From a virus: a DNA stretch of 57,481 nt. The notes below the pieces were generated by a model, which was not told the origin of the DNA, ran no database searches, and saw only the letters and a program-made list of their open reading frames with translations. Where the stretch lies: positions 1 to 57,481 of the IMG/VR virus record IMGVR_UViG_3300045988_031383; one strand, 5' to 3'. This document shows, one piece after another, positions 15,401-47,332 of this stretch (positions are counted from its first letter, which is position 1; each line of letters begins with the position of its first letter). The position numbers and the translations under genes were made by a program.

Positions 15401-17544
15401 ACCAGAAAATTCCTAAGAAATACGGTAGTCGAAACTTACTCACTAAGACTAAGGAAGAAATCAATTTCAATGGACCACTTAAAAACCCACAAGATAATAA
15501 TGCCTGGGATGTAATTAGTGGATATTGGTTTATCGACAAAAAGACCCTAAAAGAACGTGGGTATAAAGTCGGTGACCGTATGAATATCCAATTCAAGACT
15601 CGTACGACCACTCCTGGTATCACATCCATGCGGGTTTCTCCTGAAGTTTATAGTGGTGGCGGTTATTTGCAATGGATTAATGGATCTAACCCATTTGGAT
15701 TACCACGAGAATACAACAAAGACGAATGGGATGTCTCTACGTCAGATACATACAAAACCAAAATTGGTTGGTTTAATATCTCAGAGAATTCTCTTAATAA
15801 CGGTATGCAAATCCGATTCCGTGTTGATGCCGGTAATAAAGCTGCTGGTACTGTTGTCGCGGTTGATATTAAAGATGCGATGATGTGGGATGGAGACTTA
15901 TGGACGGATTATGCTCCGGCATATGAGGATATTGACCTCGATTCGAGTGAGAAATTCCAAGAAGTCCTACAGACCGTTGATATTTACAAACGTACTCTCG
16001 GTACAACTCAAAACGGGATCACCACGTCTATTTCCCAGTTAATCCAGTCAAGTGATGAGATCAAAACAGTTATCACCAATGCGTCACAATCAACCGATAA
16101 CTTGATTGTCGATACGGACACATTCTTATCCGCAAAATTAAGTAACTTCACTAACGGAGTTGATGGATACACGACATCTACCAGACCTGGAAATTACGGA
16201 AGTGCCGAGTATTTCTATTTTTCTAAAGGCAGTTACGATGGAACATATTCAAACAATTCCGCATTTGTGTCATTACCTCTGGTTATAGACAAAATGGAAG
16301 ATGGTGATAAGTATACTTTCTATTGTAAATACCACATGGATGCAACCGGAGTTTATCGAGGCAATAAAGATATGAATGTCGAATTGCAAATCATCGATAA
16401 CAACGGAACGCCGGTATATACTAAAGGACTGACAGCACAACCTGGCTATCAATACCAAACCTATACCAAAGATACATTCGATGTAGTTGGTCAGCATATA
16501 TTCGATAATGTCAATGGATATAACGGACGATTCTCATTCCGAATCAAATTAACTGGTGAAGGTCGAATTGGTATTAAGGAGATTATGTTGGTACGTGGAG
16601 AAACTGTTGGACGGTACAAACCATCTGGTGGTGTATCCTCAACTATCATATCTCAAAAGAACGATGCTTGGGCATTAAGCCTATCCGGCCCTAAAGATGT
16701 AATCACTTCGATTAATGCTGATACTTCTGGCGTACGACTCAAAGGTAAAAGCATTGTTCTTGATGGTGATGTTATTGCTAACGGCACAGCATTTATCAAA
16801 GAGAGTTGGATTGAGGATTTGAATGCTAGTAAGATTACTGCTGGTACGATTAATGCTTGGCAAGTCAAGATTGTTAATATGGATGCAAGTAATATTGTCA
16901 CTGGGACTATGAGCGCCTCTCGACTTCGAGGCGGTGAACTTAGGTCGTTAAATGATTTAACAGTATTTGATCTCGAGAGCGGCGCCCTTAATTTATATTC
17001 TAATACAGGAACTATTCGAAGAATCGATGACACAAACTCCTCGCAATTTCTTAAGATGACAAAAAGTGGTTTTATTGCTGAACGATTTAGAGATAGTAAT
17101 GCTGCTCAGATTGTTCTAGGCACAAACCATGATAAAACGGAAAGCACTGAGAACGCAACCTTTTCTGGACTAAGAATTTATTCAGGACAAGGTAAAGGCT
17201 ATAAAGAATCAGCTTTCGAGATTGTGTCTGACCGTATACACTTTTATTCCAATGGAGAATATCGTAGTCCGTGGGTTTTACATAATAATACTCAAGATGG
17301 AATGTCATTTTTTATGCCTATGAATGAAAGAAGTATAAAACATTATCTAGGTCGTGGCGATAAGCTTTTTGAAGGAGTCTATACAAAGAATCTTTATTTA
17401 GGAACTGGTGGACTTAATGCTGGTGGTTATCTATGGGATTTATTGACATGCTTCGGTGTTATTAGATCATATGGATGGGATCTTAAAAGTAAAGCCATTC
17501 AAAAACATATCGGTGATGTGCTAAATAAATACCATTTTAAATAG
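12460..17544 (+). CDS. Tail-associated lysin-like protein / tail fibre fusion (Tal), about 1694 aa
   Basis: GGAGGG lies 7 nt upstream of TTG 12460, in a TTGA overlap with the Dit stop. The N-terminus RPILYEQNERVFDTNGMGILYDAISAEVTEVRNAEFELELKYP.. matches prophage-tail endopeptidase N-domains. It continues with long coiled-coil Thr/Ser/Asn-rich repeats and C-terminal ITAGTINAW..NIVTGTMSASRL fibre motifs. Confidence 0.85.
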   Translation: MRPILYEQNERVFDTNGMGILYDAISAEVTEVRNAEFELELKYPVGGEWAQALTQNRYILVKPNDYDEPHAFRIYEIEKEVDSNQITVKGVTKTDELSGNVIKPLSIKSATPSGAWEQLKRVAVDPIEYNFISDIQTAKDTNMDIRNVLNAIAGEEGSFIDTWGGEIKRTNNTIFLYSKRGKDHVTTIRPRKNLKNVKVKSSMAGKFTRILPYVTFTPEGENEPEQVIYGDIIKSPHYDDYFVKRIVPLDLSSEFNDSSTHKEGEEAKKKAPTPAQVTAKAQSYFTSKNKDADKPDLSVEVEMIPLQDSTEWDRRIIQALEKIQLCDTVDVYVPKIDCDVTVKVRKIVYDALRERIIKIEASSSGSGRASLADQQKAQWQDLTNKIVNNALYGEKDGLIHTILTSANNKNKNFYGPEEPPREKVSKDDLWFKPVGGEGEVEMWRFDGENWVLVIDANFGQKVTDKVNDAINSAKQDINANVQATVNAALADAEKRWRPDLTPIQNELDEKLKKIDDDINVKVSDIKDQLASQLERIKPGNPNLLDGTLEMNSGDGTDWNVVQGGGGMQNGQILGARNILIDEIAGQLYNNYFSMPFTPKSYTVPYTWSFFVKNTSTNNGKIKLTPYFSDTKVTVNGEDLAPTGGEAIFDVPPGTEKYVTVTYPSLGNNDIQLQIREIGLRDGTNLYTYKWKVEEGTKATGWVPSAADGEQKWKNYKSTVDGDLASMKRRITDTEGRVTTNSTEIQHLNTGLAAKADQETVNHLDGQIESAKAELNLVPNKISTAISQYKSTVDGQISKVSTSIDQKANEIKIAAQNLEKKVDGNATNTAAELRVIKDSISAKVSRTDLDTVSGKVTAVETNLTAKIDGIKTSVDKVTRDVDGKITSAVSSAITQSENGLRSQINSVNEAAQIGIANLSSNAIPSAISNAKQYTDTQFSQVDGKIQTQINTRLVDYARTSDIATRVTQEAGRIKTELTSVIDQKIPKKYGSRNLLTKTKEEINFNGPLKNPQDNNAWDVISGYWFIDKKTLKERGYKVGDRMNIQFKTRTTTPGITSMRVSPEVYSGGGYLQWINGSNPFGLPREYNKDEWDVSTSDTYKTKIGWFNISENSLNNGMQIRFRVDAGNKAAGTVVAVDIKDAMMWDGDLWTDYAPAYEDIDLDSSEKFQEVLQTVDIYKRTLGTTQNGITTSISQLIQSSDEIKTVITNASQSTDNLIVDTDTFLSAKLSNFTNGVDGYTTSTRPGNYGSAEYFYFSKGSYDGTYSNNSAFVSLPLVIDKMEDGDKYTFYCKYHMDATGVYRGNKDMNVELQIIDNNGTPVYTKGLTAQPGYQYQTYTKDTFDVVGQHIFDNVNGYNGRFSFRIKLTGEGRIGIKEIMLVRGETVGRYKPSGGVSSTIISQKNDAWALSLSGPKDVITSINADTSGVRLKGKSIVLDGDVIANGTAFIKESWIEDLNASKITAGTINAWQVKIVNMDASNIVTGTMSASRLRGGELRSLNDLTVFDLESGALNLYSNTGTIRRIDDTNSSQFLKMTKSGFIAERFRDSNAAQIVLGTNHDKTESTENATFSGLRIYSGQGKGYKESAFEIVSDRIHFYSNGEYRSPWVLHNNTQDGMSFFMPMNERSIKHYLGRGDKLFEGVYTKNLYLGTGGLNAGGYLWDLLTCFGVIRSYGWDLKSKAIQKHIGDVLNKYHFK

Positions 17545-18427: not shown

Positions 18428-20971
18428 ATGCGATATTTAGATACGCCTGTGACTATCGTCGATGACGGTACAGATCGCAGCTTAAGTATCAAATTTGCCG
18501 AGCCGGGTGCCGGGGATACAGAGGTTATCTCCGGTGTCTTGTTTAGGACATCACATGATACTTCTGAGGAAATTCAAGCTAAATTTGAACCTACTACTGG
18601 GTGCCTAAATCTTGAAATTCCTAATAATTTAATTAATTATACGGGCTACGCTAAAATCGTTGTCCCTAAATCGTCATTCTTATCTGAACCTATCACTGTC
18701 AAGTTCGATGTATATTCTCCAAAGGACGAAGACGGAGCTGACCGTGGTTATACTGGCGCAGATAAGTACTTATTTGTCCGTGACTTCCATACAAATGGTG
18801 ATATTTACGTCGAGGTGGGATCCGATGTAGTTAATACTGATTTCTTGCGAAGCGTCATTGACAAAGTTATTGCTAACACTGGACTATCGGATAAAGATGG
18901 GGTTGAAATTGACACTGTCGCTCTTAAGAATGACATTCTCAATCGTGTGATCAAGTCTATCGATACCAATAAGATCCAGAATGATGTTCTTACGGCTGTA
19001 ACAGCTAAGATCGATAAGATCCAAGAAGAACAATCAAAATCCGTGCAAAATCAGGACAGTAAGATTCAAGCCGTCGAATCTAAAGTTGCTGGTATTGACG
19101 TGGATACAATTAAGACAAATATCCTTAGTGAGTTCAACACCAAGACAGAGCAAATTAAAGCAGAGATTGTTAATGCCGTCGACATTCCTCAGCTTAAATT
19201 AGATTTGACAGCTTTGGTTAACTCTAAATTCACAGAGGAGAAACAAGCTATTGTGGATAGTGTGACCTCCACAATTAACGAGAAACTCCAATCTAATGAA
19301 TTTATCGATCCGATTGTCCAACGGGCGATTGCTGGGGTGGATACACATGGATATGCTGACACGGTTAAGTCCGAACTTACTACCAAGATCGAGACTAACG
19401 AATCGAACATCGCTGGGATCAACACCAAACTAGAAGGTATTGAGCAGAAGTTATCTGCTAGTATTTCTGAGGCGATCCTGAAGACACTGAAGGATCAACT
19501 TACTTCTCAAGATATTACAACTATTCTTAAGAAGGACGATTCTTATGTTACCACTATCTGGGAAGATATCAAGACTGCTGGTAAACTAGATGAATTTGTT
19601 AAAGATGTTGACTTTCGAGTGATCGATGATATTGATGGTGGAGCAACTTTATATAATGGCGCGAATGTAGTATTAAGACTTCCAGCGCCAGGTCCTAGTA
19701 TTTCTGAGGTTAATCAACTTCGATCAAGTTTGGAAGCTCTAACTGGCAGAGTTGGTACTGCCAATTTAGAAATCGAAGAAATCAAAAAACAAGGAGTTGG
19801 TGGCTCAGGTACTCCTGGACCGCAAGGTGAACAAGGTATCCAAGGCCCTCCTGGACCTCCGGGTCCTAAGGGGGATAAAGGTGAACCTGGCGAACGTGGC
19901 CCTAAAGGTGAAGATGGACAACCAGGTCCAGTTGGACCACAAGGTCCTGCCGGCCCTCCAGGAGAATCTCCAACTATCGATACTACTAACTTTGCGACTA
20001 AGCCAGAGCTCAATCAGGTTAAATCTGATGTTACTGGTCTACAATCACAAGTTAGTGACGTTGATGGACGGGTTACAACTCTTGAGAACAAACCTGCTCC
20101 GACAGTAGAAATCCCATCAGAATACAAGAAACTCAATGACTTATACGCTATTTTCCCAACATACGAAAATCTTCTAACCCAAATGACAACAAATATCAAG
20201 AACCAACACTTGGCTCTTGGTATTGATGCTGTGGTCGACGACAAACTTCGTAATGGTGGAGACCCATTTGTTACTACGTCACGGATGACCGAGGCTATAA
20301 AAGCAGTAAACGGTGGGTCTGGTAGTGGTACTACTATCGTTGCGGGTAATGATGTAGATACTGTATTTGGTGATAATTACCCATATGATGGTGATAATAT
20401 CACAACTCTTAAGGATATCCCAATCGGATCGGTATATGTCGACCGACTTCGTAAGAACGGCGCATTGAAATGGATCAAGACTCAAATGTATGCTAAGAAT
20501 GCGGATCGTAATCAAGCACGAAATTGTTGGCGTGTGTTATATGGCGATACTGGAGCGGTTAAAATGCCGATGACAGGTTCTCCTCTAAATGGCGCGGTAT
20601 TGACATTCCGTCGTGTCAACTCCACTGTCGAACTCACTTGGGGTGGATTGTCTTGGGGTTGGTTCGGTATCAAACGAAGAGGAGCTGCTGGATATGCAGA
20701 TCACCCATCAGACCGTAACAAATTTGTAACGATCATTCCTCAAGGAGGTCTTAAAGACGGGTTTATCCCTACAGGATCTAAATTGGGAAATATGACAAAC
20801 GATAAGGGTGTTCCTTACGGTACATTCTACGTTGGCAGTGTGACTGATTCTAGACAAGTGCGCTTGCAATTCCTGAATGACGTACCAACAGATCGTGATA
20901 TTGGAGATATTCGATTTACAACTATGACGTATATCACGGACGATCCGTGGCCAGACCAAATTACTAGATAA
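18428..20971 (+). CDS. Collagen-like tail fibre / receptor-binding protein (BppU-like N-terminus)
   Basis: AAGGAGG upstream. 847 aa comprising an N-terminal beta-rich domain, coiled-coil repeats, a G-X-Y collagen run and a C-terminal globular domain. Confidence 0.8.
19793..19963 (+). repeat. Collagen-like G-X-Y triplet repeat (coding)
   Basis: [58 protein letters not shown]. Confidence 0.95.
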
Positions 20972-21926: not shown

Positions 21927-22664
21927 ATGACAGTAAATCCCGCACTGATGCTCGCATGGATGATTGCTCGTGAAGGACGGGTGACATATTCCATGTTACG
22001 TCGTACAGGCCCAGACTCATTTGACTGCTCATCATCAATGTATTATGCTGGTGTAGCCGGTGGTATGAGCACTCTACCTTGGCCTTGCTCGACTGAGACA
22101 ATGCACGACTGGTTGTTACAAAATGGCTGGGTACTGTTGGCTGAAAACCAAGAAGCTGACGTACAAGCTGGTGATATTTTCATCTGGGGTCAAAAAGGAT
22201 ATTCTGCTGGGGCATTTGGTCACACAGGTATTTTCCTAGACTCAGAAGGAACTATTATCCACTGTAACTATGGATATAATGGTATTACTCGAAATAACCA
22301 CGATGAAATCTGGGGTTATAATGGTCAACCATATTTCTACTTCTATCGTTACAACGGTGGAGCTCGTGTCCCTAACCCTCCTCAACTTGAGATGGCTGAA
22401 AGCAGCTTCGAGCATGAGTTGAATGTTGGTACGCATCTGCCATCGAGTGAACAACCATATTACGAAGCGACAGTCACAGAGGACTACTGGGTCGAAGCTC
22501 AACCGTTCGCTGGTGCTGAAGAAAAAGAACTATTCAAGAAAGGTTCTCGTGTGCGTGTCTATGAGAAAGTGGACGGATATTCTCGGATTGGGTCTCCTCA
22601 ATCTGCTCAATGGATTGATGACAACTATCTAGACGACGCTGAGGATATGGTTGGTAAATTATGA
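21927..22664 (+). CDS. Endolysin: Amidase_5/CHAP-like Cys-His peptidoglycan hydrolase with a C-terminal SH3b-like domain
   Basis: ..REGRVTYSMLRRTGPDSFDCSSSMYYA...GDIFIWGQKGYSAGAFGHTGIFLDSEGTIIHCNYGYNGI.. matches the phage peptidoglycan-hydrolase (Amidase_5) pattern. The C-terminal ..GSRVRVYEKVDGYSRIG..AQWIDDNYL is SH3b-like. Confidence 0.85.
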   Translation: MTVNPALMLAWMIAREGRVTYSMLRRTGPDSFDCSSSMYYAGVAGGMSTLPWPCSTETMHDWLLQNGWVLLAENQEADVQAGDIFIWGQKGYSAGAFGHTGIFLDSEGTIIHCNYGYNGITRNNHDEIWGYNGQPYFYFYRYNGGARVPNPPQLEMAESSFEHELNVGTHLPSSEQPYYEATVTEDYWVEAQPFAGAEEKELFKKGSRVRVYEKVDGYSRIGSPQSAQWIDDNYLDDAEDMVGKL

Positions 22665-28622: not shown

Positions 28623-28653
28623 AAGGGAATTTAAACAATTCCCTTTCTTTTTT
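28623..28653 (+). terminator. Intrinsic terminator
   Basis: AAGGGAATT taaac AATTCCCTT (perfect 9 bp) followed by TCTTTTTT. Confidence 0.9.
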
Positions 28654-28664
28654 GGAGGTGAGTG

Positions 28665-28865
28665 ATGTTTAAAGATGATGCGTGGGTTAAGGTTTTAAGT
28701 ATATTACTATTTGTTTTGTTCATTCTATTGTTCTTTTTAGTAACCACAATAGAAGATCATGTAACAAAATTAGAGCGTACAGTTGAAATTCAACAAATCC
28801 AAATTGACTATCAACGAGATGTTATAAACAACATCAACAGAAAAGTGTTATATCCTGGAGGTTAG
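28665..28865 (+). CDS. Small membrane protein
   Basis: GGAGG lies 6 nt upstream of ATG 28665. TM segment VLSILLFVLFILLFFLV. Confidence 0.7.
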   Translation: MFKDDAWVKVLSILLFVLFILLFFLVTTIEDHVTKLERTVEIQQIQIDYQRDVINNINRKVLYPGG

Positions 28866-28868
28866 AGT

Positions 28869-29180
28869 ATGGATAGAAAACAACCAATGTTTAAATTGTC
28901 TCAACGCGGAGACGAAATTGAAATCACAAGTGATAACTACAATCTTATTCGTCATTCGTACGACTCGTATAAATTTATGATGGATAAGTGTTACCCAATG
29001 CGCCCAGGTCTTATTATGGACGATACGAATCTCGCTGAAGAGGTTCTTATTATCGGTATCACGGATCTTTGGATGAATAGGACAAACAATATTTGGCACT
29101 TCACTATTTACTTGACGGAGCTGCATAGCGACTCACCGTTCAAGACACTGAAGGAGTATTTTGGAAAGGAGGTTAAATAA
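28869..29180 (+). CDS. Hypothetical protein
   Basis: TGGAGGTTAGAGT upstream. 103 aa. Confidence 0.7.
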   Translation: MDRKQPMFKLSQRGDEIEITSDNYNLIRHSYDSYKFMMDKCYPMRPGLIMDDTNLAEEVLIIGITDLWMNRTNNIWHFTIYLTELHSDSPFKTLKEYFGKEVK

Positions 29181-29680
29181 TGGTATCACCTATTGTGAAA
29201 CGGTCTAGCGAATTCAAAGATACAGTTGTATCAATGGTACGAGCTATGCCGTTAGATGAGATGCTTCTTGTGCCTGCGTCGTATATTGACAAAGGTATTG
29301 AAGCGTGGCTTGCAGTTGACCCCGATACGGGAATTAGCCCTGCCCAGGAAGACTACAAGCATTACTTTCAATTCATCATGACAATTCCTAAAGAGATGTA
29401 CGTCTTAGACATGGATCTATATTATTTGCGTATTGCTAAACGGATTGTGGACAATATTCTTATGACTATGCTCGATACATCGTATTACAAATCTGTATTT
29501 GGGTATGCTGATGTCGAGAAGGAACAATATGAGCTTATTTACGCTCTAACAAATGATGTTCTGGATCGACTAGAGGACACTCAAGATGGTCGGCGAGTGT
29601 ATAAGAATACAAAAGAACTTAGGGAAGAATTCGAAAAGTATTTCGAAGAGGTGTTAAGCAATTATGACGAAGAGTCTTGA
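29180..29680 (+). CDS. Hypothetical protein (tandem paralogue A)
   Basis: AAAGGAGG upstream. 166 aa. ..MPLDEMLLVPASYIDKGIEAW.. parallels the next ORF. Confidence 0.7.
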   Translation: MVSPIVKRSSEFKDTVVSMVRAMPLDEMLLVPASYIDKGIEAWLAVDPDTGISPAQEDYKHYFQFIMTIPKEMYVLDMDLYYLRIAKRIVDNILMTMLDTSYYKSVFGYADVEKEQYELIYALTNDVLDRLEDTQDGRRVYKNTKELREEFEKYFEEVLSNYDEES

Positions 29681-30173
29681 ACCGAGTTATATCGCAAAAT
29701 CTATCCCCATATTGACTAAGGACGAATTCTTTGCGTATATTCGAGATAGCATAGTCAACTTACCGTTAAAAGAGATGTTTTATGTGGACGATTGGTATAT
29801 TGATCGTCTTATTACAAATTGGCAAACGTTTAAATTTGAGTCTGACTATCGTAAATACATATTCGGACTCTTAATGTTACCTAAGAATCTCAAGCAATTG
29901 GATATCGACTTGATGCTTTGGAATGTTGTTAGAAGTCTCGTTGATGAAATGATAGTATCTTTAGCCGAGGGATTCTATTACGACGAGATGGAAAGTGTTA
30001 TCGGCGAGACTATATATTTTGAGCCCTTCAAGAAATACAAAGGACACGAAATCGACAAACAAAAAGTCAATTATTTCCTCGACATTCTTGATACAATATA
30101 TGGTCGTGTGGACGAGGGATTTGACACGCTGACGTGGATACGCTCAGCTGTCGATGAGAATTATTTACTATAG
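29664..30173 (+). CDS. Hypothetical protein (tandem paralogue B)
   Basis: 169 aa. ..LPLKEMFYVDDWYIDRLITNW.. and ..LDIDLMLWNVVRSLVDEMI.. parallel the previous ORF. Confidence 0.7.
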   Translation: MTKSLEPSYIAKSIPILTKDEFFAYIRDSIVNLPLKEMFYVDDWYIDRLITNWQTFKFESDYRKYIFGLLMLPKNLKQLDIDLMLWNVVRSLVDEMIVSLAEGFYYDEMESVIGETIYFEPFKKYKGHEIDKQKVNYFLDILDTIYGRVDEGFDTLTWIRSAVDENYLL

Positions 30174-30179
30174 GAGGTT

Positions 30180-30341
30180 ATGCTCGTTGTGAAACAGCAT
30201 GTAAACTTTATTTTGTCGGATGGCGATATGAATGATATCGCTACACAATTCATGGCATGTGACCGTGAGTTGGAGGTTGAGATCGAGGGTAGTAATGTAG
30301 TTTTACACCTCGTACGTGATGATGCAGATGCAGAATACTAA
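30180..30341 (+). CDS. Possible small acidic ORF (53 aa) missing from the track
   Basis: TAGGAGG immediately upstream, but spacing to the ATG is only 2 nt; GTG 30189 is an alternative start. It fills a gap that would otherwise be 190 bp. Confidence 0.4.
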   Translation: MLVVKQHVNFILSDGDMNDIATQFMACDRELEVEIEGSNVVLHLVRDDADAEY

Positions 30342-30362
30342 GAAAATTAGGAGAATAGAGAA

Positions 30363-31823
30363 ATGAATAAAAAAGCAATCGTATTTACAGGAACTATCGC
30401 ACTTGCCCTTTTGACAGCACCAAGCGTATTAGCTAACGAAGCCGATACTGTTGTCACCAAACAAGATACTAATATCACAGTGCAAAATCCTTCAGTTGAA
30501 GTAACAACATCTGATGATACTATTTACGCTGATGTAGATGTCAAAGTTAATGATATCCAAATCCCAGATGATATTTCAATCAATAAAGGAGACAGTATCA
30601 CTGTTGGATTGCCGCAAGAGCTTAAATTGGTAAATAACTACACATTCCCAGTTAACAATAACGAGGGAACAGAAGTTGGTACAGCCACTGCGAACAAAGA
30701 TAATAACGAAGTTACAACTGTGTTCAATGACTACTTTGAATCGCACCCTCTAAATAAAACATTCTCTCTTGATATCAAAACTCAATGGAATGTCGAAAAG
30801 GTTGCTGAGAATCAACAAGTTGCCCTTGATTTCAACGGTCGTAAGGTTGAAACTACTACTGGTAAAACTGGTGTTATCGGTAAAGATGAAACTCTTATGA
30901 AATGGGGAGGCGAGGACGCCGAACACCCAGGCGAAATCGTATGGGCAATGCGTGTTAACTACGCCAAGAAAGACCTAGTCAATGTCAAAGTTGCTGATAC
31001 TTGGGACGAAAACCAAGAATATGTTAAGGATTCGTTCAAAATGGTGTCTGTTGAATCAAATAACCCTTGGAAAGAAAAAGAATCTGAAGCAACTAAGATT
31101 GCTCCTGTATTCCATACTAATGGTTTCACTTGGTCTGCAGATAAACTCTCGGATCAGTTGTATATTAGCTATCGTACAAAGGTTATCAAACAAGCTGAGC
31201 GTTATTTGAATAGCGTGGTTCTTAGTGCTGACAACTTCAATTCACAATATCGTGATGTACCTTATCAATTTGTAACCGGCAGCGGTAAGGCAGATGGAGA
31301 AAACAAACCTAAGGTAGAGGATAAGAAGCCAGAGGAAAAACCAAAAGAAGATCCTAAACCTAAGGAAGAAACTCCTAAAGAAGATCCTAAAGAAGATCCT
31401 AAAGAAGATCCTAAGAAGCCAGAAGATAAGCCTAAAGAAGATCCTAAAGAAGATCCTAAGAAGCCAGAAGATAAGCCTAAAGAGGAACCTAAACCTAAAG
31501 AAGAAACTCCTAAAGAGGAACCTAAAGAGGATCCTAAGAAGCCAGAAGATAAGCCTAAAGAGGATCCTAAGAAGCCAGAAGATAAGCCTAAGGAAACTCC
31601 TAAACCTCAAACACCACCTGCACCTAAGCAAGTTGTAATTCGTAAATACGAAGAAAAGAAACCTGTTGTGCGCAATATCCCGGCCAAAGTAATTGAAGCA
31701 ACCAAACAAGTTGAAACTCATACTTTGCCAAATACTGGATCTAGCCTAGAGCTTGCCCTCATTACTACTGGTGTGTTCTTGGCATCTGCTGCGGTAGCTA
31801 TCAAACGAAAGGAAACTAAATAA
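30363..31823 (+). CDS. LPXTG cell-wall-anchored surface protein with a Cna/collagen-binding-like adhesin domain
   Basis: Signal peptide MNKKAIVFTGTIALALLTAPSVLANE. ..GDSITVGLPQELKL..TATANKDNNEVTTVFNDYFE.. resembles MSCRAMM A-domains. Also has a Pro/Lys/Glu/Asp-rich wall-spanning repeat, LPNTG (31725-31739), a hydrophobic stretch and a KRKETK tail. Confidence 0.9.
   Translation: MNKKAIVFTGTIALALLTAPSVLANEADTVVTKQDTNITVQNPSVEVTTSDDTIYADVDVKVNDIQIPDDISINKGDSITVGLPQELKLVNNYTFPVNNNEGTEVGTATANKDNNEVTTVFNDYFESHPLNKTFSLDIKTQWNVEKVAENQQVALDFNGRKVETTTGKTGVIGKDETLMKWGGEDAEHPGEIVWAMRVNYAKKDLVNVKVADTWDENQEYVKDSFKMVSVESNNPWKEKESEATKIAPVFHTNGFTWSADKLSDQLYISYRTKVIKQAERYLNSVVLSADNFNSQYRDVPYQFVTGSGKADGENKPKVEDKKPEEKPKEDPKPKEETPKEDPKEDPKEDPKKPEDKPKEDPKEDPKKPEDKPKEEPKPKEETPKEEPKEDPKKPEDKPKEDPKKPEDKPKETPKPQTPPAPKQVVIRKYEEKKPVVRNIPAKVIEATKQVETHTLPNTGSSLELALITTGVFLASAAVAIKRKETK
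31306..31628 (+). repeat. Tandem Pro-rich coding repeats (KPEDKPKEDPKEDPK-type)
   Basis: gatcctaagaagccagaagataagcctaaaga recurs four times, with shorter gaagatcctaaa units between. Confidence 0.9.
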
Positions 31824-32158
31824 TGCAAAGTTGGTTAAAGACTCCGGATATGGCAAAAGATAGTGAGACATTCGGTATCATTGCTTTATTTAAATCTATG
31901 GCATATGATTACAAATACGCAAATCTAGATCCAATTGAGAAGTCTGTGGTGTCATATTTGATGATAAACTATCATCAAATTGAACTTGGGAATAATGTTC
32001 AGAACGATCTAAAAGAAATTTCCCAAATCTTCATAGAAGAAAACGGACCTTCTATTGTATCTGACGTATGTACACTGATGGCTAATCCAGATTTGATTGC
32101 GGAACATATCGAATACCTCAAAAGTTTTAATAATCCGCAGGAATTACACGCACTATAA
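31823..32158 (+). CDS. Hypothetical protein
   Basis: TAATG overlap with the adhesin stop. 111 aa. The last codons are promoter P5. Confidence 0.65.
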   Translation: MQSWLKTPDMAKDSETFGIIALFKSMAYDYKYANLDPIEKSVVSYLMINYHQIELGNNVQNDLKEISQIFIEENGPSIVSDVCTLMANPDLIAEHIEYLKSFNNPQELHAL

Positions 32159-32188: not shown

Positions 32189-32509
32189 ATGTCAAAAGAA
32201 ACTGTTTCAAACAAAATCGAAGAAGTTAAGGACGAAGCAACTGAAGTTGTTGAGAACGTCCAAGAAGAAGTTAAAGAAGTTGTTGAAGGGCAACCTGAAA
32301 CTAAGGTCGATGTTGTCGAACAAAAAGAAACCATCTTTAAAAAAGGTGAAAAAATTGTTCGTAAATACCGTCCTGTGTTTAAGAAAGCTCTGATCACAAC
32401 CGGATTGATTATTCTTGGTGGACTCGCATACGGATATGTGAAGAAATCCAATACTGAAGAAGATGTTGTTGAAGGTGAATTTGAAGGCATTTCATATGAC
32501 AACGAATAA
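32189..32509 (+). CDS. Acidic protein with a C-proximal TM helix
   Basis: AAAGGAGGACTATAAA upstream. 106 aa. Confidence 0.75.
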   Translation: MSKETVSNKIEEVKDEATEVVENVQEEVKEVVEGQPETKVDVVEQKETIFKKGEKIVRKYRPVFKKALITTGLIILGGLAYGYVKKSNTEEDVVEGEFEGISYDNE

Positions 32510-32520
32510 AATCGTTTAAG

Positions 32521-32557
32521 AGAATACGGGATATTACATCTCGTATTCTTTTTTTTT
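32521..32557 (+). terminator. Intrinsic terminator
   Basis: AGAATACGGGA tattaca TCTCGTATTCT (11 bp) followed by T8. Confidence 0.9.
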
Positions 32558-32580: not shown

Positions 32581-32766
32581 GTGAAAACATTTATTGGCGC
32601 TGTATGCATGTGCTTTATCGGAGCGTTATTTAGCGCTGCACTATATACTACGTTTGTTTATTTCTTTAACGCCGACCCACGATTGGCTGTGTGTTTAACA
32701 GGAGCTTTACAGACGATTGCTATGTACTTATGGGGGTATACAGCCGGAAAAACTAGTAAAGAATAA
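32581..32766 (+). CDS. Small two-TM membrane protein (holin-like topology, GTG start)
   Basis: AAAGGAGAACTACTA upstream of the GTG. 61 aa with two hydrophobic helices and a charged C-terminus. Confidence 0.6.
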   Translation: MKTFIGAVCMCFIGALFSAALYTTFVYFFNADPRLAVCLTGALQTIAMYLWGYTAGKTSKE

Positions 32767-39707: not shown

Positions 39708-39905
39708 TTAAGATCGAACGTAAATGGGACCATGATAGACGAGGGCATAATATTGTTATCCACACAATCCATAAAGATCCTGGTCCTGTATGGAGTGGTG
39801 TAGAGGCGATGTATATATTTGATGAGAGCGATATTCAATCTCTTCTTATAGGTCGTTCGGGAATGAAAGATATTAAAGTAAATGTTAACGGAGGGAAGTA
39901 TAACA

Positions 39906-40808
39906 ATGACTGATAAATTAACACCAAAATCAATGGAAGACCAATACGAACACCAACTTGAGACGTTCAAACGCAAAAATCACGACTATGGGAACTCATT
40001 TGAGAAGAGTTTAGACACCTTCGGATTGGTGGCTGGCATCGTCCGTATGAACGACAAATTCGAGCGCTTAGTTTCACTCAATGATCCTTCTAAACGCGCT
40101 CAGATCGCCTCTGAGAGCCTTGTAGACACCTTAGAAGACCTGTCTAACTACGCTGCGATGGCTGCGTGCTGGTTGAAGGGTAAAAAGGCGGCTGAATGGA
40201 AGGAATTACGCCTTAAAGAGCTTGATGGAAACATTGAGGATATTATTAAGAAGGCGGATACTTCGGTTGTGAAATCTATCGATGAAACCAAATCAAAAGC
40301 TATGGTTTTTATGCCCGGTCGTCGTGATGGCAAAACCGTTTCTCTCCAAAAAGCAATTGAAGAAGGCCTTGCGGATAAGGGTATTAAATACCAACCACAG
40401 TTCTCTGGGATTTCTTTGAAAGGCCCTGAGAAACTTGAGTTAAATCTCGAAGTTGACCAGGATAAATTATTTGAAATCTCAAACGCACTGCATCCTAGTA
40501 CATTGCCTAAATCCGTTAAGGTGGATTATGGTCATAAGGCCGTGTATGAATTCCCTGATGGCATCGACGCAATCTCGTATTACATTCGTGAGATGCAAAA
40601 AGAAGAAACTAAAAAGGAAAACGATCGCGTTATGCTTGATATGATGTTATCTCGTATCGAGAAAGGCGAGGTTGTTCGTATTGTGGCTAATGGAGATGGA
40701 TCTTTCACTACATATTTCGAGAAGACTGATTGTCCTTTCAATAAAATTGTAGATAAGGAAGGTGAATCCATTTTCTTCGAGAAAGAAGGACTTGACGATG
40801 ACGAATAA
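39906..40808 (+). CDS. DUF1599 / MazG-like all-alpha nucleotide pyrophosphohydrolase-like domain fused to an unknown C-terminal domain
   Basis: ACGGAGGGAAG upstream of ATG 39906. ..FKRKNHDYGNSFEKSLDTFGLVAGIVRMNDKFERLVSL.. matches the KN.DYG..F...G..G...R..DK..R pattern. Confidence 0.6.
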   Translation: MTDKLTPKSMEDQYEHQLETFKRKNHDYGNSFEKSLDTFGLVAGIVRMNDKFERLVSLNDPSKRAQIASESLVDTLEDLSNYAAMAACWLKGKKAAEWKELRLKELDGNIEDIIKKADTSVVKSIDETKSKAMVFMPGRRDGKTVSLQKAIEEGLADKGIKYQPQFSGISLKGPEKLELNLEVDQDKLFEISNALHPSTLPKSVKVDYGHKAVYEFPDGIDAISYYIREMQKEETKKENDRVMLDMMLSRIEKGEVVRIVANGDGSFTTYFEKTDCPFNKIVDKEGESIFFEKEGLDDDE

Positions 40809-41658: not shown

Positions 41659-44600
41659 ATGGATTTTTTGGACGTCACCGTCAAAAAGTTCACTTCCAAT
41701 AACAGATCGTGTGATTACGAGGTGTCGCCCGACTTCATTTTTGGTGATGCCAAAGATTTAGTCGTAAAGGGTGGCAAGTTCTACGCTTATTGGAATGGAC
41801 ATAGATGGGACACATTACAACGAAACTTATTTCACGATATTGATAGTCTATTGTGGAATGAAGCAAAAGAACTTCGAGAGAAGAACCCTGGGTTAAGAAT
41901 TGAAGTAAAAGAAATTCGGAAAGCTTCTGGTGGAAAGTTCCGATTATTTATTGACTATTGTAAAGCCACCGAACAGAATGATATTCCATTCAATCAGAAA
42001 GTATTGTTCGCTGATCATAAAATGCAGAGACGAGATTATGCAACTTCACAATTATCGTATTCTCCAACTGAAGGAGAACCCGTAGCATTTATGAAATTGC
42101 TCGGCACTTTATATGCCCCAGCAGAACTAGACAAGATTCTTTGGTTCATGGGCGCCTTATTTACCAACAACATGTACAAGATCGAAAAGTTCATGTATTT
42201 GTATGGTTCAAAAGGTAGTGGTAAAGGAACTGTACTCAAGATATTCAGATGGTTGTTTGAAGATTATTGCGGAACTATCGATTTGAAATTACTTACCAGT
42301 AACGACCCATTCGCAACTGGACAAATTAAAGAAGTTCCATTGTTGATTGATGAAGATACAGACATCAGTCATATTTATAATGACACCCCATTATTGAAAC
42401 TGACAAGTCATGAAACTATTTCTGTCAACCAAAAGTACAAAGAACAATATGACGTTACATTTAGCGGTTTACTTATTACTGCATCAAACCAACGATATAA
42501 AGTTCGAAATGTCGACTCAGGTATTACTAGACGTGCCGTGGTTGTAAATCCAAGTGGCAACAAAGTTCCCCATAAAGATTATATTTCGTTGATGAATCAA
42601 ATCAAATACGAGTTACCCTATATTGCTAATATCGCAATTAGTCGATTTGAGCAATTAGGATTCGATTATTTTGATGATTACTTCGACGTTGACATGGCCG
42701 AGCAGACAGACCATATCTTTGATTTTATTCGAAGTGAAGCGATGCAAATGAAAGATGGTATTAGTCTTAAACAAATTTCGGAGCTTTACAAGAATTATCT
42801 TGAAGACATGGGATGGAAAACTGATGGATATAAAGCCACGATCAAACGTGAAGCCCTTAGATATTTTGATACGATGGTTAAAGATACAAACATCGATGGC
42901 GTTCGTATTAAGAATTTCTTTAAAGGTTTCCGATGGTCTATAGCATTTCCCGAAGGTGTCGTCTCCGAGGACATTACAGAGAATAAAGTTATAGATTGGC
43001 TAGACTTTTGTTATCGTAATGAGGTGTTTAATAAATTAGCTGAAAATTACCCGGCACAAGAAGCTTTAAGTAATGGTAACCCGTCAAAGAAATGGGATGA
43101 GGTTACCACAACTCTAAAAGAAATTAATACCAAGAAATTGCACTGGGTTAAAGTTCCACTACAACATATTGTTCTCGACTTTGATATAAAGGACGAGAAT
43201 GGAGAGAAAAGTTTAGAGCTTAATAAAAAAGCTGCAGCGAAGTATCCACAAACATATGCCGAAGTATCTAAATCTGGGAAGGGAATTCATCTACATTATT
43301 TGTACGATGGTGATGTTAATAAATTAGACAACCTAGTTGAAGATAATGTCGAAATTAAAGTTTATAAAGGGAAGGCGTCTTTACGAAGGATTGATAATGC
43401 ATCGAATGATCTTGAAGTATCTCATATTTCGTCGGGATTGCCGATGAAAGAGAAGAAGGAGATAGTGATGTACGACACTGTAAAAGATATTACCTATACG
43501 GAGAAGACCCTCCGAAAATTCGTTAAGAAACAGTTAGGACTAATTCCGGGAGAAAAACCGAGCCACGCAAATACGAAACCAACGATCGATTGGATTGCTC
43601 ACGAAATTCATAAAGCATACGACATGGGATTACAATACGATATTACAGACTTGAAGCATTCAGTATTTCTTCGAGCATTACAATCCTCTAACCAAAAAGA
43701 TTATTGCTTGGAAGTATTTTCCAAAATCCCATGGTCTTCAATTCGAGATGACGATGGGAAGACAGAATACGAATTGACAACTGGTACACAAATTGTGGCC
43801 AAGGAAGAAATTGTGTTCTTCGATATTGAGGTATATCCAAATCTGTTTGTCGTTGTGTGGAAGAAATATGGTGAAGACGAATTCACTCGTTGGGTAAATC
43901 CTACTCCGGATCAAATTGAGTACTTGTGTACATTTCCTCTGATTGGTTTCAACAATCGTCGATACGATAATCATATCTTGTATGCTCGGTTACTTGGTGG
44001 AACCAATATGGAATTATTTAATCAGTCGCAACGTATCATCAATGAAAAGAATGCGAAGACTGGAATGTATGCTGCAGCTTATGAATTAAGTTATGCCGAT
44101 ATTTACGAGTACTCACAAAAGAAACAATCATTGAAACGTTGGGAAGTTGATTTAGGAATTAAACACGTTGAGATGGAAATTCCCTGGGATCAACCAGTGC
44201 CTGACGATTTAGTTGACACTGTTGTGGAATACTGTGTAAATGACGTGGACGCAACTGAGAAAGTATTCGATGCAACCTATGCAGATTATATTGCTCGAGA
44301 AATTCTTGCGACCATTACAGGCGGAAGTATGAATGCGACAAATAATCAGCTTACCGCTCGATTCATTTTCGGAGATGATCCTCGTCCTCAGGATAAATTT
44401 AATTATGTAAAATTAGCTGAGACATTCCCTGGATACGAATACAAGTTCGGTAAATCTACATATCGTGGATTTGAAACTGGTGAAGGTGGATTTGTATATG
44501 CTGAACCAGGAGTATATAAAGATATTGCCCTGATCGACGTTGAGTCAATGCACCCGAACAGTTTGGTTAATATGAATTACTTCGGACCATATACTCAACG

Positions 44601-45480
44601 ATATGCTGACTTGCTGAAAGTTCGCATTTTGCTCAAGCATGGAAAGATTGACGAAGTTAAACAAATGTTTAATGGATCTTTGGCTCCGTTCTTGGACGAT
44701 GATCAATATATGAAACCGTTGGTTACTGCTTTGAAGATTGTTATTAATTCGGTTTACGGAATGACTTCCGCTTCGTTTGATAATAAATTCAAGCACCCAG
44801 ACAATATTGATAACATCGTCGCAAAACGTGGAGCTTTATTCATGGTCGATCTTAAATTCGCAGTTGAGGCTGAGGGATATCAGGTCTGTCATATTAAGAC
44901 CGACTCAATTAAAATTCCTAACGCTGATGATTATATCGTTGACTTCGTTATGAAATTCGGTAAACGCCCAGAGTACAATTATAATTTTGACCACGAGCAC
45001 ACATATAAACGCATGGCCCTTATTAACAATGCCGTTTATATTGCTCAACTTGAAGACGACAAGTGGGCGCCAACAGGAGCTGAGTTCGCAAATCCATATC
45101 TACTTAAGCGGGTATGGACAAAAGAAGAATTGGTTGATAAAGATTTCTTCATCACCAAACAATCCAAAGGTCATATCTATCTTGGAAACGAGTTTGTTGG
45201 AAAAGTTGGATCTATTTATGCATCTCTCACTGGAGAAGAATGCATGTGGACTGAAGATAACGAGAACTTTAAATCCGTTACGGGTACAAAAGGATTCAAA
45301 TTCAAACAAACTTCAGAATTCAACTATGAAGATATCGACTTTGACTACTACGATAAGGTTGCTATTGCTGGTCTTAAGAAAATTATTAAGGTTGGTGATA
45401 TTAATCAAATCGTTGACGACATGCCGAAGGATTATATTGAGCCATTAGGTCTCAATGAGCAAAATTCTGAGGTTGCTTAA
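41659..45480 (+). CDS. Fusion of an SF3 (D5/P4-type) helicase, an AEP PrimPol and a family-B DNA polymerase with 3'-5' exonuclease (1273 aa)
   Basis: Walker A GSKGSGKGT (aa ~183) and Walker B LLIDEDTD with ..LKLTSHETISVNQKYKEQ..GITRRAVVV. PrimPol motifs VLDFDIKD (aa ~506) and SKSGKGIHLHY (aa ~540). ExoI FFDIEVYP (D722/E724), ExoII NNRRYD, ExoIII YCVNDVDAT. PolB motif A DVESMHPNS (aa ~960), motif B KIVINSVYG (aa ~1026), motif C KTDS (aa ~1080). Confidence 0.85.
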   Translation: MDFLDVTVKKFTSNNRSCDYEVSPDFIFGDAKDLVVKGGKFYAYWNGHRWDTLQRNLFHDIDSLLWNEAKELREKNPGLRIEVKEIRKASGGKFRLFIDYCKATEQNDIPFNQKVLFADHKMQRRDYATSQLSYSPTEGEPVAFMKLLGTLYAPAELDKILWFMGALFTNNMYKIEKFMYLYGSKGSGKGTVLKIFRWLFEDYCGTIDLKLLTSNDPFATGQIKEVPLLIDEDTDISHIYNDTPLLKLTSHETISVNQKYKEQYDVTFSGLLITASNQRYKVRNVDSGITRRAVVVNPSGNKVPHKDYISLMNQIKYELPYIANIAISRFEQLGFDYFDDYFDVDMAEQTDHIFDFIRSEAMQMKDGISLKQISELYKNYLEDMGWKTDGYKATIKREALRYFDTMVKDTNIDGVRIKNFFKGFRWSIAFPEGVVSEDITENKVIDWLDFCYRNEVFNKLAENYPAQEALSNGNPSKKWDEVTTTLKEINTKKLHWVKVPLQHIVLDFDIKDENGEKSLELNKKAAAKYPQTYAEVSKSGKGIHLHYLYDGDVNKLDNLVEDNVEIKVYKGKASLRRIDNASNDLEVSHISSGLPMKEKKEIVMYDTVKDITYTEKTLRKFVKKQLGLIPGEKPSHANTKPTIDWIAHEIHKAYDMGLQYDITDLKHSVFLRALQSSNQKDYCLEVFSKIPWSSIRDDDGKTEYELTTGTQIVAKEEIVFFDIEVYPNLFVVVWKKYGEDEFTRWVNPTPDQIEYLCTFPLIGFNNRRYDNHILYARLLGGTNMELFNQSQRIINEKNAKTGMYAAAYELSYADIYEYSQKKQSLKRWEVDLGIKHVEMEIPWDQPVPDDLVDTVVEYCVNDVDATEKVFDATYADYIAREILATITGGSMNATNNQLTARFIFGDDPRPQDKFNYVKLAETFPGYEYKFGKSTYRGFETGEGGFVYAEPGVYKDIALIDVESMHPNSLVNMNYFGPYTQRYADLLKVRILLKHGKIDEVKQMFNGSLAPFLDDDQYMKPLVTALKIVINSVYGMTSASFDNKFKHPDNIDNIVAKRGALFMVDLKFAVEAEGYQVCHIKTDSIKIPNADDYIVDFVMKFGKRPEYNYNFDHEHTYKRMALINNAVYIAQLEDDKWAPTGAEFANPYLLKRVWTKEELVDKDFFITKQSKGHIYLGNEFVGKVGSIYASLTGEECMWTEDNENFKSVTGTKGFKFKQTSEFNYEDIDFDYYDKVAIAGLKKIIKVGDINQIVDDMPKDYIEPLGLNEQNSEVA

Positions 45481-46157: not shown

Positions 46158-47332
46158 TGACTATTGAGTTATACGACTATCAGCGTAGGGCAGTTGATAG
46201 TATGCATAACGGATCTGTTTTGTGCGGGAAGGTCGGTTCTGGTAAATCCTTGACCGGCCTATTTTATTATATGGAGAACCATATTGATAAGCCGCTGTAT
46301 ATTATTACAGTTGCCAAGAAACGAAACGATCGTGAATGGCATAGAGATTTTGAAGCCTTAGGAATAAATGGTGTTGTCGATTCATGGAATAACATCAACA
46401 AGTATTCCGACGTAAAAGATGCGTTCTTTATTTTTGACGAACAAAGAGCGATTGGATACGGAACATGGGGAATGGCATTTATATCAATTGCCAGAAAGAA
46501 TAAATGGATAATGCTCACCGCGACGCCTGGTGATGTTTGGATGGATTGGATGTGTATTTTCATAGCCAATAATTTCTATCGAAACAAAACCGATTTTGTT
46601 GAACAACATGTCGAGTACAATCCATATTCAAAATTCCCTCAAATCAAGCGATATCATAAAACAGATAAGCTTGAAAGATACAGACGATATCTTGCAGTGC
46701 CCATGGAAGATTTTAGAACTACAAAAGTTCATCGTCAATTTATTACTGCTCAGTATGATAAAGAATTATATGAGCAAGTAAAGAAAACCAGGTTCAATCC
46801 ATTTACGGAAGAACCAATACAAAATGCTTCCGAGTTTACTCAAGTATTACGTCGTATAGTAAATACTAGCGATCGTAGGCGAGCAAATGTGAAGCAACAA
46901 ATTATGACTCGTGATCGAATCATAGTTTTCTACAACTATACCTATGAGCTTGATATTCTCAAAGAGATTTGTCAAGAATTAAATAGGGCATTTTATCAAT
47001 GGAACGGCAGTAAACATGAGCCAATACCTGATACCGATAGTTGGGTATATCTGGTTCAGTACACGGCCGGGGCTGAGGGATGGAATTGTATAACTACTGA
47101 CACGATTTTATTCTATTCGTTAAATTATTCCTATCGAATTATGGAACAATCCGAAGGACGAATTAATCGAGTGAATACCTCCTTTAAAGATCTTTTCTAC
47201 ATTTATATGAAATCCCCAGCCTCAATTGATGATGCTATCGCTAGATCTATATCTAGCAAAAAGAAATTTAACGAAAGGAATTGGGTGACCCACGAATGTC
47301 CAAATTGGAGCGAGATTTTCAAAAAGGATTGA
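46157..47332 (+). CDS. SF2 (DEAD/SNF2-like) DNA helicase
   Basis: Motif I GKVGSGKS, motif II FIFDEQ, motif III LTATPG, motif VI QSEGRINR. Confidence 0.85.
   Translation: MTIELYDYQRRAVDSMHNGSVLCGKVGSGKSLTGLFYYMENHIDKPLYIITVAKKRNDREWHRDFEALGINGVVDSWNNINKYSDVKDAFFIFDEQRAIGYGTWGMAFISIARKNKWIMLTATPGDVWMDWMCIFIANNFYRNKTDFVEQHVEYNPYSKFPQIKRYHKTDKLERYRRYLAVPMEDFRTTKVHRQFITAQYDKELYEQVKKTRFNPFTEEPIQNASEFTQVLRRIVNTSDRRRANVKQQIMTRDRIIVFYNYTYELDILKEICQELNRAFYQWNGSKHEPIPDTDSWVYLVQYTAGAEGWNCITTDTILFYSLNYSYRIMEQSEGRINRVNTSFKDLFYIYMKSPASIDDAIARSISSKKKFNERNWVTHECPNWSEIFKKD

Follow-up and report, generated by a model that had tools for sequence, protein, structure and literature searches.

A predicted sortase-anchored MSCRAMM adhesin in the lytic programme of a 1706-like phage of oral streptococci

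The virus record IMGVR_UViG_3300045988_031383 of IMG/VR was analysed at its full length of 57,481 nucleotides (nt), referred to as the window, with regard to one open reading frame (ORF) at 30363-31823. We hold with high confidence that this ORF is a functional gene encoding a sortase-A substrate of the class of microbial surface components recognizing adhesive matrix molecules (MSCRAMM), with a two-domain ligand-binding region of the Cna/Ace/Cnm type on a flexible Pro-Lys-Glu-Asp stalk. The same confidence covers its description as a mobile cassette, which circulates among phages of oral streptococci and here forms part of the pre-replicative operon of a complete siphophage of the 1706-like type without integrase. 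The whole explanation that we consider best is a lytic-conversion adhesin, which would be anchored by the host sortase and would bind a conserved ligand. Judged from the sequence data, the chances for and against this complete explanation are about evenly balanced.

Architecture and class of the adhesin

The ORF is located on the plus strand, like all other features with coordinates given for genes and signals below, and encodes 486 amino acids (aa) plus the stop codon without internal stops. A complete surface-protein kit of Gram-positive bacteria had been proposed in the original prediction, and all of its parts could be located. A Sec-type signal peptide, MNKKAIVFTGTIALALLTAPSVLA followed by NE, was read from the sequence at aa 1-24 (30363-30434). 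It shows the n-h-c layout, is conserved across all aligned homologues and is predicted to be cleaved between VLA and NE. Reading of the signal peptide revealed no YSIRK motif. Cysteine is absent from the signal peptide and the mature N-terminus, hence the lipobox of lipoproteins of the Llp/Ltp type is missing.

The signal peptide is followed by a globular A region of approximately 290 aa with two subdomains that resemble immunoglobulin domains. Subdomain 1 (30438-30872), assigned by Pfam, alignment and an AlphaFold model, matches Big_8 (PF17961) at aa 64-151 with an E-value of 6.4e-13 and 49.2 bits (cut-off 22.9). For subdomain 2 (30873-31307; Pfam, AlphaFold model and Foldseek) a match to Collagen_bind (PF05737) was obtained at aa 176-295 with an E-value of 7.6e-14 and 52.5 bits (cut-off 27.5). 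Subdomain 1 contains the invariant block VTTVFNDYFxxHPLNK. In the family alignment the residues F96, N97, Y99, F100, P104 and K107 (numbering of the A domain) are invariant. The TTVFNDYF part of this block sits, as we assume, at the position of the TYTFTDYVD motif of the Clf/Sdr adhesins.

The wall-spanning Pro-Lys-Glu-Asp stalk, predicted with about 100 aa, was measured with 105 aa (aa 315-419; 31305-31619). It was delimited by Tandem Repeats Finder and alignment and is a tandem-repeat array of variable length with nested periods of 12, 33, 45 and 78 nt over 31344-31604. No Cna_B domain was detected with Pfam in the adhesin; the spacer consists of this low-complexity array instead. A short linker without repeats connects the stalk with the sortase-A cleavage motif LPNTG (aa 455-459; 31725-31739). 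The C-terminus is formed by a hydrophobic membrane-retention helix of 21 aa (aa 460-480) and the positively charged tail KRKETK (aa 481-486), both within 31740-31820. In sequence, the Sec signal peptide, LPNTG, the 21 hydrophobic residues and KRKETK are the features of a sortase substrate.

A model of aa 26-315 was built with AlphaFold from an alignment of 23 family members, which are 26-98% identical to the query. It consists of two all-beta domains with a mean predicted local distance difference test score of 92.9. In a Foldseek search against the PDB, ligand-binding regions of Gram-positive MSCRAMMs were found with E-values of 3e-17 to 1e-12 and template modelling (TM) scores of 0.55-0.63. 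The matches were ClfA (2vr3), SdrE (5wtb), SdrG (1r17), Bbp (5cfa), Cnm (8jl8), RspB (3v10), Cna (2f6a) and Ace (2z1p), and the best of them were the N2N3 or N1N2 regions of ClfA, SdrE, SdrG, Cnm, RspB, Cna and Ace. With the family sequence profile RspB was the best match among the PDB sequences (E 1.8e-4), and SdrE was found as well. The viral model library BFVD yielded a single real match, a metagenomic siphovirus protein named 'Clumping factor'. No PHROG family matched the adhesin at E ≤ 0.001. The expected MSCRAMM or collagen-binding-like A domain was thus confirmed by two Pfam matches above the cut-off and by the structural matches to adhesins of the Cna and Clf types. The Pfam architecture places the protein with the Cna/Ace/Cnm subclass, which by fold alone is inseparable from the Clf/Sdr subclass.

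The collagen-binding MSCRAMMs Cna of Staphylococcus aureus (2f6a/2f68), Ace of Enterococcus faecalis (2z1p), Cnm of Streptococcus mutans (8jl8) and RspB of Erysipelothrix (3v10) are alike in the signal peptide, the two tandem Ig-like subdomains, the wall-spanning region and the LPXTG anchor. However, the window protein is only 12-20% identical to these proteins and to the Clf/Sdr adhesins ClfA, SdrG and SdrE. For Cna the Cna_B repeats are typical, though not universal, whereas the window protein has the Pro-Lys-Glu-Asp stalk. Known MSCRAMMs are encoded on chromosomes or pathogenicity islands; in contrast, this protein is encoded by a phage. It is a new, divergent member of the class.

Placement in the phage genome and host

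All plausible genes of the window are on one strand and no divergent switch is present. The adhesin gene follows the lysis cassette and precedes the replication genes (41659 onward), within a block of small ORFs. This position agrees with the earlier claim that the gene sits inside the early block. The preceding ORF ends at 30341, 21 nt before the start codon of the adhesin, and the gap contains only the ribosome-binding site AGGAG (30349-30353), 9 nt before the ATG. Because of this short gap there is no room for a promoter of its own. A consensus scan, which other promoter types could escape, found no sigma-70-like promoter before the adhesin. In the sequence TAATG (31821-31825) its stop codon shares nucleotides with the ATG of the following gene (31823-32158), and thus both genes are translationally coupled. 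Terminator-like hairpins, both from the consensus scan, bracket a unit of eight genes that includes the adhesin. The upstream one is located at 28623-28645. The downstream one, at 32518-32552, is a strong candidate with a 15-bp stem and a T run and lies two genes behind the adhesin. From the ribosome-binding site, the overlap and the lack of an own promoter and terminator it follows that the adhesin is integrated into the phage operon and does not form an autonomous moron. A prophage moron would also be carried by a temperate phage, and neither integrase nor repressor was found in this carrier.

Further ORFs of this neighbourhood were noticed. Small predicted membrane proteins are encoded at 28662-28865, 32189-32509 and 32581-32766; they share the transcription unit or the vicinity of the adhesin and showed no family matches. 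They could represent further envelope-directed functions. Just upstream of the cassette slot, 29180-29680 and 29664-30173 are diverged tandem paralogues (about 28% identity by tblastn), which are conserved across the lineage.

The window is the whole IMG/VR record and was rated 100% complete by CheckV. Its ends overlap by 55 bp, hence the assembly is circularly closed. The features of 1706-like siphophages are present: a GP55-type helicase-primase-polymerase replicase (41659-45480; phrog_4210, E 0), a single-chain RNA polymerase fused to a helix-turn-helix (HTH) domain (48146-50791; phrog_4291, E 4e-302), a genome size of about 55 kb and genes on a single strand. Among named phages, Caudovirus D_HF5_2C from saliva is closest, with a replicase of 81% aa identity. 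More distant relatives belong to the Lactococcus 1706 group (replicase 44-47%), with 46.7% identity over 98% of the length for phage 1706 itself. No near-identical DNA was found among GenBank phages. The Lactococcus 1706 group has been described as virulent (PMC4110766).

The absence of a visible lysogeny module, as originally claimed, was examined by several searches. No match above the cut-off was obtained in a six-frame genome search for tyrosine integrases (PF00589), serine integrases (PF00239) and cI/Cro-type regulators (HTH_3). The controls of this search were positive in 13-14 of 14 reference genomes. Among 50 scanned phage proteins no PHROG match to a repressor, antirepressor, excisionase or partition function was detected; the Pfam models of ParA/ParB and of protelomerases were not searched separately. 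Furthermore, a DNA search with nt 20001-57481 revealed no integrated copy in 401 genomes of Streptococcus species. Long matches were obtained solely to one free-standing phage contig of 56.9 kb in a metagenome-assembled genome (MAG). The idea of hidden lysogeny genes was considered and is ruled against by the negative integrase, HTH_3 and PHROG searches. Together with the virulent relatives, these results agree with the claim, and the term 'apparently virulent' is as well supported as sequence alone permits.

Additional genes were assigned with PHROGs. A tape measure protein (3876-11678), a tail protein (12445-17544) and a collagen-like tail fibre (18428-20971) were identified, furthermore a protease-capsid fusion, a large terminase, a portal, a holin, a single-strand annealing protein, a helicase and an exonuclease. 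The late block ends, upstream of the adhesin region, with an Amidase_5 endolysin (21927-22664). The ORF 39882-40808 (308 aa) matches phrog_1485 and DUF1599, a domain associated with nucleotide modification. In D_HF5_2C the syntenic gene of 307 aa just upstream of the replicase (OR148986.1, 44007-44930) is labelled 'lysin' in GenBank. This label is probably wrong, because the true endolysin of the lineage is encoded by the Amidase_5 gene downstream of the tail fibre.

Three independent spacers of clustered regularly interspaced short palindromic repeats (CRISPR) from three Streptococcus genomes match the window. The first protospacer (28794-28823) is matched in 29 of 30 positions by a type II-A array with the 36-nt repeat GTTTTTGTACTCTCAAGATTTAAGTAACTGTACAAC in genome G078. 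The second (46529-46558) is matched in 30 of 30 positions by a type II-A array of genome G282, and the third (47257-47286) by 30 contiguous nt of a 35-nt spacer from a type III-like array of genome G250. By the rpoB region, G078 and G282 are nearest to Streptococcus parasanguinis (94% and 91%, respectively) and G250 to S. oralis (94%). The MAG that contains the sister phage contig is likewise placed in the mitis/oralis group. The endolysin shares 58-60% identity with lysins of Streptococcus prophages, and for the C-terminal part of the tail fibre matches were obtained solely to prophages of S. parasanguinis, S. mitis, S. infantis and S. pneumoniae. These sequence matches point to oral Streptococcus of the parasanguinis and mitis/oralis groups as hosts. 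Labels of MAGs (Granulicatella, Gemella, Saccharibacteria, Carnobacterium, Prevotella) were mutually inconsistent. They were treated as binning noise, apart from one Saccharibacteria-labelled contig described below, and the spacers were used instead. For D_HF5_2C the host prediction was given only as 'Bacillota' (PMC10537320), and the CRISPR matches supply a host assignment for the lineage of this published relative. A sortase (PF04203) is absent from the phage. In contrast, all five candidate host Streptococcus genomes contain one above the cut-off.

Exchange, constraint and the wider family

The distribution of the gene was examined with 24 loci of the lineage, which were taken from IMG/VR via the conserved downstream gene. 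The adhesin was present in six of them, in four close relatives of the window and in two members of a clade that is 78% identical on the downstream gene. Where present, its slot is constant, between the homologues of 30180-30341 and of 31823/32189. In a sister pair with 93% identical flanks (L021/L019), a 1457-bp segment, essentially the adhesin ORF, replaces a 316-bp segment with a gene of 99 aa. On the sequences compared, the gene thus behaves as a cassette, present or absent in one slot among sister phages. Between the two clades the A region of the adhesin has 89.7% DNA identity and a synonymous divergence (dS) of about 0.6, whereas for the flanking genes 68-69% identity and dS 1.2-3 were determined. 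The lower divergence of the adhesin indicates that the cassette was exchanged between the clades after their split.

Selection was investigated with the window and its 120 nearest clusters at 90% identity (121 sequences), almost all of them on contigs of 53-59 kb. Identities of 94-99% were determined between the A region of the window and those of the 120 clusters. The pairwise ratio of nonsynonymous to synonymous divergence (dN/dS) of this region is 0.02-0.08 at dS 0.24-0.68. Across the 121 sequences 206 of 290 positions of the A domain are invariant, and no hypervariable patch was found in this alignment. The LPNTG motif is kept in all 120 clusters. The strong constraint and the retention of LPNTG are characteristic of a protein for which both anchoring and the binding of something unchanging are indispensable. 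Likewise, the near-invariant binding domain suggests a stable ligand and not the target of an arms race.

The stalk differs from this pattern. It is the only gappy part of the alignment with high entropy and occurs in at least two sequence types. Its length varies from 12 to 116 aa among the 120 clusters, and that of the whole protein from 408 to 511 aa. The proposal of the repeat array as a hotspot of length variation was therefore borne out.

An exhaustive phmmer search of 1.84 billion cluster representatives yielded only 309 clusters at E ≤ 0.001. The nearest clusters are located on contigs of phage size or are named Caudoviricetes or Streptococcus. In IMG/VR 195 contigs encode a relative. 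Homologues in GenBank phages have 34-42% identity over the A region and belong to temperate phages of S. salivarius, S. parasanguinis and S. mitis. They are LPXTG proteins annotated with a 'collagen binding domain' in YMC-2011 (Ssal_phage00024), Javan535 (Javan535_0035, labelled 'sialidase'), Javan371, Javan311 and SA-TP2. In Javan535 and YMC-2011 the homologue is encoded on the lytic strand directly behind cro, xis or antirepressor, and the replication genes follow it. The same early-lytic context was found in prophages of S. oralis, S. sanguinis, S. parasanguinis, S. salivarius and S. gingivalis genomes. An LPxTG-type signal is kept in all distant homologues examined. The proteins of YMC-2011, the Javan phages and SA-TP2 thus share family, layout and placement in an early lytic operon with the window adhesin, but these phages have an integrase and a repressor, of which the window phage has neither. 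Apart from the annotations in these phages, no study of the phage-borne family was found in the papers that could be searched.

Two assumptions of the original prediction have to be corrected in this respect. The gene is not an isolated capture from a chromosome but belongs to a mainly phage-borne family; such genes had been described as normally chromosomal or prophage morons, but the relatives in temperate phages, too, lie in the early lytic operon and not at a classical moron site. Moreover, the gene is accessory and has in the window neither a promoter nor a terminator of its own.

Among 33 sampled IMG/VR genomes outside the lineage, 17 contain a tyrosine integrase; these have 35-49 kb, except one of 55 kb. 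Nine of the sampled genomes with 54-62 kb have no integrase (G431, G438-G443, G445 and G446). Their adhesin is 40% identical, and several are complete with terminal repeats. The GP55-type replicase of the window was missing in all five that were tested. The carriers are of at least three types: temperate phages of 35-49 kb, the 57-kb 1706-like lineage and integrase-less phages of 54-62 kb. Relatives in the first and the last of these types are 30-45% identical. In a maximum-likelihood tree of 95 A regions the copies of the 57-kb lineage form one tight clade (support 100) on a long stem. This clade adjoins the prophage type of S. oralis and S. sanguinis with a support of 90, to be read with caution due to the long branch. 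The copies of the 54-62 kb phages are nested within the diversity of the temperate phages. From the well-supported branches at least three switches of phage type can be deduced.

Two observations concern copies in bacterial assemblies. A member 72% identical to the Javan535 protein was found on contig CAKUZG010000016.1 (GC content 38%) of a MAG labelled Candidatus Saccharibacteria. It adjoins genes of an FtsX/ABC transporter, topoisomerase I (topA) and a sigma factor, which indicates a chromosomal and not a phage context. As Saccharibacteria are surface-attached epibionts, this copy may hint weakly at an adhesion role outside phages, provided that the binning is correct. Furthermore, a second paralogue with 28-29% identity to the window protein was observed in four genomes of the S. 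parasanguinis group (L045/L081, L065/L082, L059/L108 and L056/L088), on the same contig as the prophage-type copy and separated from it by about 26 kb.

Possible role of the adhesin in infected cells

According to the proposed mechanism, the adhesin would be transcribed after infection within the operon at about 28.7-32.5 kb, together with pre-replicative genes, and the protein would be exported by Sec. The housekeeping sortase of the host (SrtA) would cut LPNTG between threonine and glycine and join the protein to lipid II, from which it would be incorporated into new wall. The binding domain would then project past the wall on a stalk of variable length, and this length may tune its reach through the walls and capsules of different hosts. 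Candidate ligands are a constituent of the salivary pellicle or the extracellular matrix, or a structure on the surface of bacteria nearby. Selection in the mouth is dominated by the need to resist removal by the flow of saliva. By such binding the infected cell, and later its burst, would be held inside a dense susceptible population and would not be washed off. This adhesin reading is favoured because the A regions of MSCRAMMs are adhesins and because the binding domain is near-invariant. That the phage keeps the gene as a lytic-conversion adhesin for a conserved ligand of non-phage origin has, in our estimation, somewhat less than an even chance.

Several points weigh against this explanation. 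Two generic anchor models remained just below their cut-offs, PF00746 with 16 bits (cut-off 20) and TIGR01167 with 13.8 bits (cut-off 15.9); the LPNTG sorting motif is canonical despite these scores. The TM scores are 0.60-0.63 for ClfA and Cna alike, so binding of the collagen type and of the fibrinogen type is not separable by fold. The adhesin is missing in 18 of the 24 lineage loci and in D_HF5_2C and is thus dispensable. One close relative (IMGVR_UViG_3300045988_049810) has an in-frame deletion of 609 nt, equivalent to 31098-31694 of the window. It removes the end of subdomain 2 and the whole stalk, whereas the LPNTG anchor is retained; a naturally truncated variant and a collapse in the assembly are both conceivable. 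We infer the 'early' timing of the adhesin only from its position. A repeated promoter-like motif with the core TACAN5TATAATGAAGAA occurs in four copies, all at 23.1-24.9 kb and none near the adhesin, and a phage-specific promoter before the gene was rejected for this reason. Sortase anchoring depends on active synthesis of the wall, and infection may restrict this. Finally, that a burst inside a susceptible biofilm would favour transmission of the phage is reasoning rather than data.

The main rival explanation, which we regard as unlikely, is superinfection exclusion or trapping of phages, in which the displayed protein blocks later phages. It could bind them directly, for instance at tail fibres of the collagen-like kind, or it could recruit human proteins from saliva or serum as a coat that hides the wall receptor. 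Progeny could also be kept from sticking to debris, as with Llp of T5. Imm and Sp of T4 and Llp of T5 are the models for exclusion genes of virulent phages. The location of the adhesin is in line with this, as virulent phages keep their exclusion genes in the pre-replicative region, and its variable, swappable slot lies beside the small membrane proteins mentioned above. A precedent is the LPXTG-anchored M protein, which binds IgG and albumin of serum and thereby prevents phage A25 from adsorbing (bioRxiv 10.1101/2024.02.07.579182). Moreover, the tail fibre of the window phage itself contains a collagen-like run of 19 Gly-X-Y triplets (fibre aa 458-514; 19799-19969), and all clades of the lineage in which the adhesin occurs have a fibre of this kind.

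On the other hand, the binding domain is almost invariant and has no hypervariable patch, unlike proteins of an arms race between phages. A collagen-like segment (PF01391) was detected in only 12 of the 33 other phage genomes with adhesin and in none of the nine genomes of 54-62 kb, and within the lineage collagen-like fibres occur with and without the adhesin. Sortase substrates are deposited only at sites of new wall, and to cover a polysaccharide receptor of the whole cell within one latent period seems inefficient. Unlike Llp and Ltp, the protein has no lipobox. In the lineage PF01391 was observed in the clade of the window and its sister clade and was absent from six more distant members. 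The collagen-like fibre was downgraded as ligand of the adhesin, since only a part of the other carriers has it and the association within the lineage is confounded by shared ancestry. A variant of the general viral strategy considered below, in which the ligand is a collagen-like stalk, either of phage fibres or of collagen-like proteins of streptococci, is given a very small probability.

Quite improbable is a phage that is not strictly lytic and persists as an episome or in a carrier state, with the gene as an ordinary moron-type conversion adhesin that benefits a long-lived carrier. Whole contigs of the lineage were binned with bacterial MAGs, namely the 56.9-kb contig with a Streptococcus of the mitis/oralis group and a contig of 56.6 kb with a MAG labelled Granulicatella adiacens. 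Most early genes are without known function and could include an unrecognised maintenance system. However, binning by coverage is uninformative on the physical state of phage DNA. The negative integrase, HTH_3 and PHROG lysogeny searches, the gene order on one strand without divergent switch, the virulent 1706-group relatives and the lack of an integrated copy in the Streptococcus genomes all argue against a carrier state.

A selfish or neutral passenger, spread by recombination among co-infecting phages without benefit for them, is very unlikely: it would fit the patchy distribution, the natural deletion variant and the exchange between clades, but a neutral insert of 1.5 kb in a capsid-limited phage should decay, whereas dN/dS stays at 0.02-0.08 over dS up to 0.68, LPNTG is intact in every cluster, full-length members are kept on the 195 IMG/VR contigs and in at least three phage types, and nothing in the cassette encodes a mobility function.

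The lytic-conversion adhesin has partial counterparts among known systems. Llp of T5 is a lytic-conversion lipoprotein, which is made by a virulent phage before lysis. Like Ltp of the S. thermophilus phage TP-J34 and the lactococcal Sie2009, it is a phage gene product with an export signal that reaches the cell surface. In contrast to the window protein, a sortase-type MSCRAMM of 486 aa, these are small lipoproteins or membrane proteins blocking the receptor or DNA entry, and Ltp and Sie2009 are encoded in the lysogeny module and expressed from the prophage. PblA and PblB of the S. mitis phage SM1 are phage-carried adhesins, which change the binding of the bacterium to host components. However, they are tail proteins of a temperate phage without sorting signal and are bound to the surface after lysis via choline binding, whereas the window adhesin is a dedicated substrate of Sec and sortase outside the structural module. 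The nearest published idea comes from a preprint of October 2026 on huge gut phages with a sortase B and its substrates, for which display of phage proteins on the host wall was proposed (bioRxiv 10.64898/2026.10.24.761521). The concept of signal peptide and cell-wall sorting signal is the same, but those phages have more than 200 kb and encode their own SrtB with an adjacent substrate. The 57-kb phage has no sortase and would rely on SrtA of the host via its canonical LPNTG. The setting described here can thus be seen, on the genomic evidence, as a variant of conversion genes and of surface remodelling by phages: a swappable cassette for a constrained sortase substrate, which belongs to the lytic programme of a phage without integrase and is also found in at least two other phage types.

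Sortase-anchored adhesins are usually viewed as colonisation or virulence factors of bacteria and, in phages, as cargo of lysogenic conversion. Here, an intact member under strong constraint belongs to the lytic programme of a phage without lysogeny genes, which suggests that phages alter how infected cells stick or are recognised before the burst. Its relatives occupy comparable positions in many temperate oral phages and in another integrase-less phage type. Tentatively, and with more doubt than for the single phage, phage-borne MSCRAMM cassettes may be a general viral strategy in the mouth, found in at least three unrelated types of Streptococcus phages, in which an adhesin displayed during the lytic programme steers the site or the clumping of the host cells before they burst. 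If true, this would be a bacterial counterpart of the manipulation of host behaviour by parasites. The natural near-isogenic phage pairs with and without the cassette are a ready experimental handle. Should the protein be displayed, the adhesive or ligand-binding surface of oral streptococci would be altered for a short time by lytic infection, with possible effects on the spatial structure of biofilms and on phage transmission. A part of the adhesin repertoire in oral metagenomes would then be viral, and adhesin genes of streptococci would gain a route of exchange by phages across the mitis, sanguinis, parasanguinis and salivarius groups.

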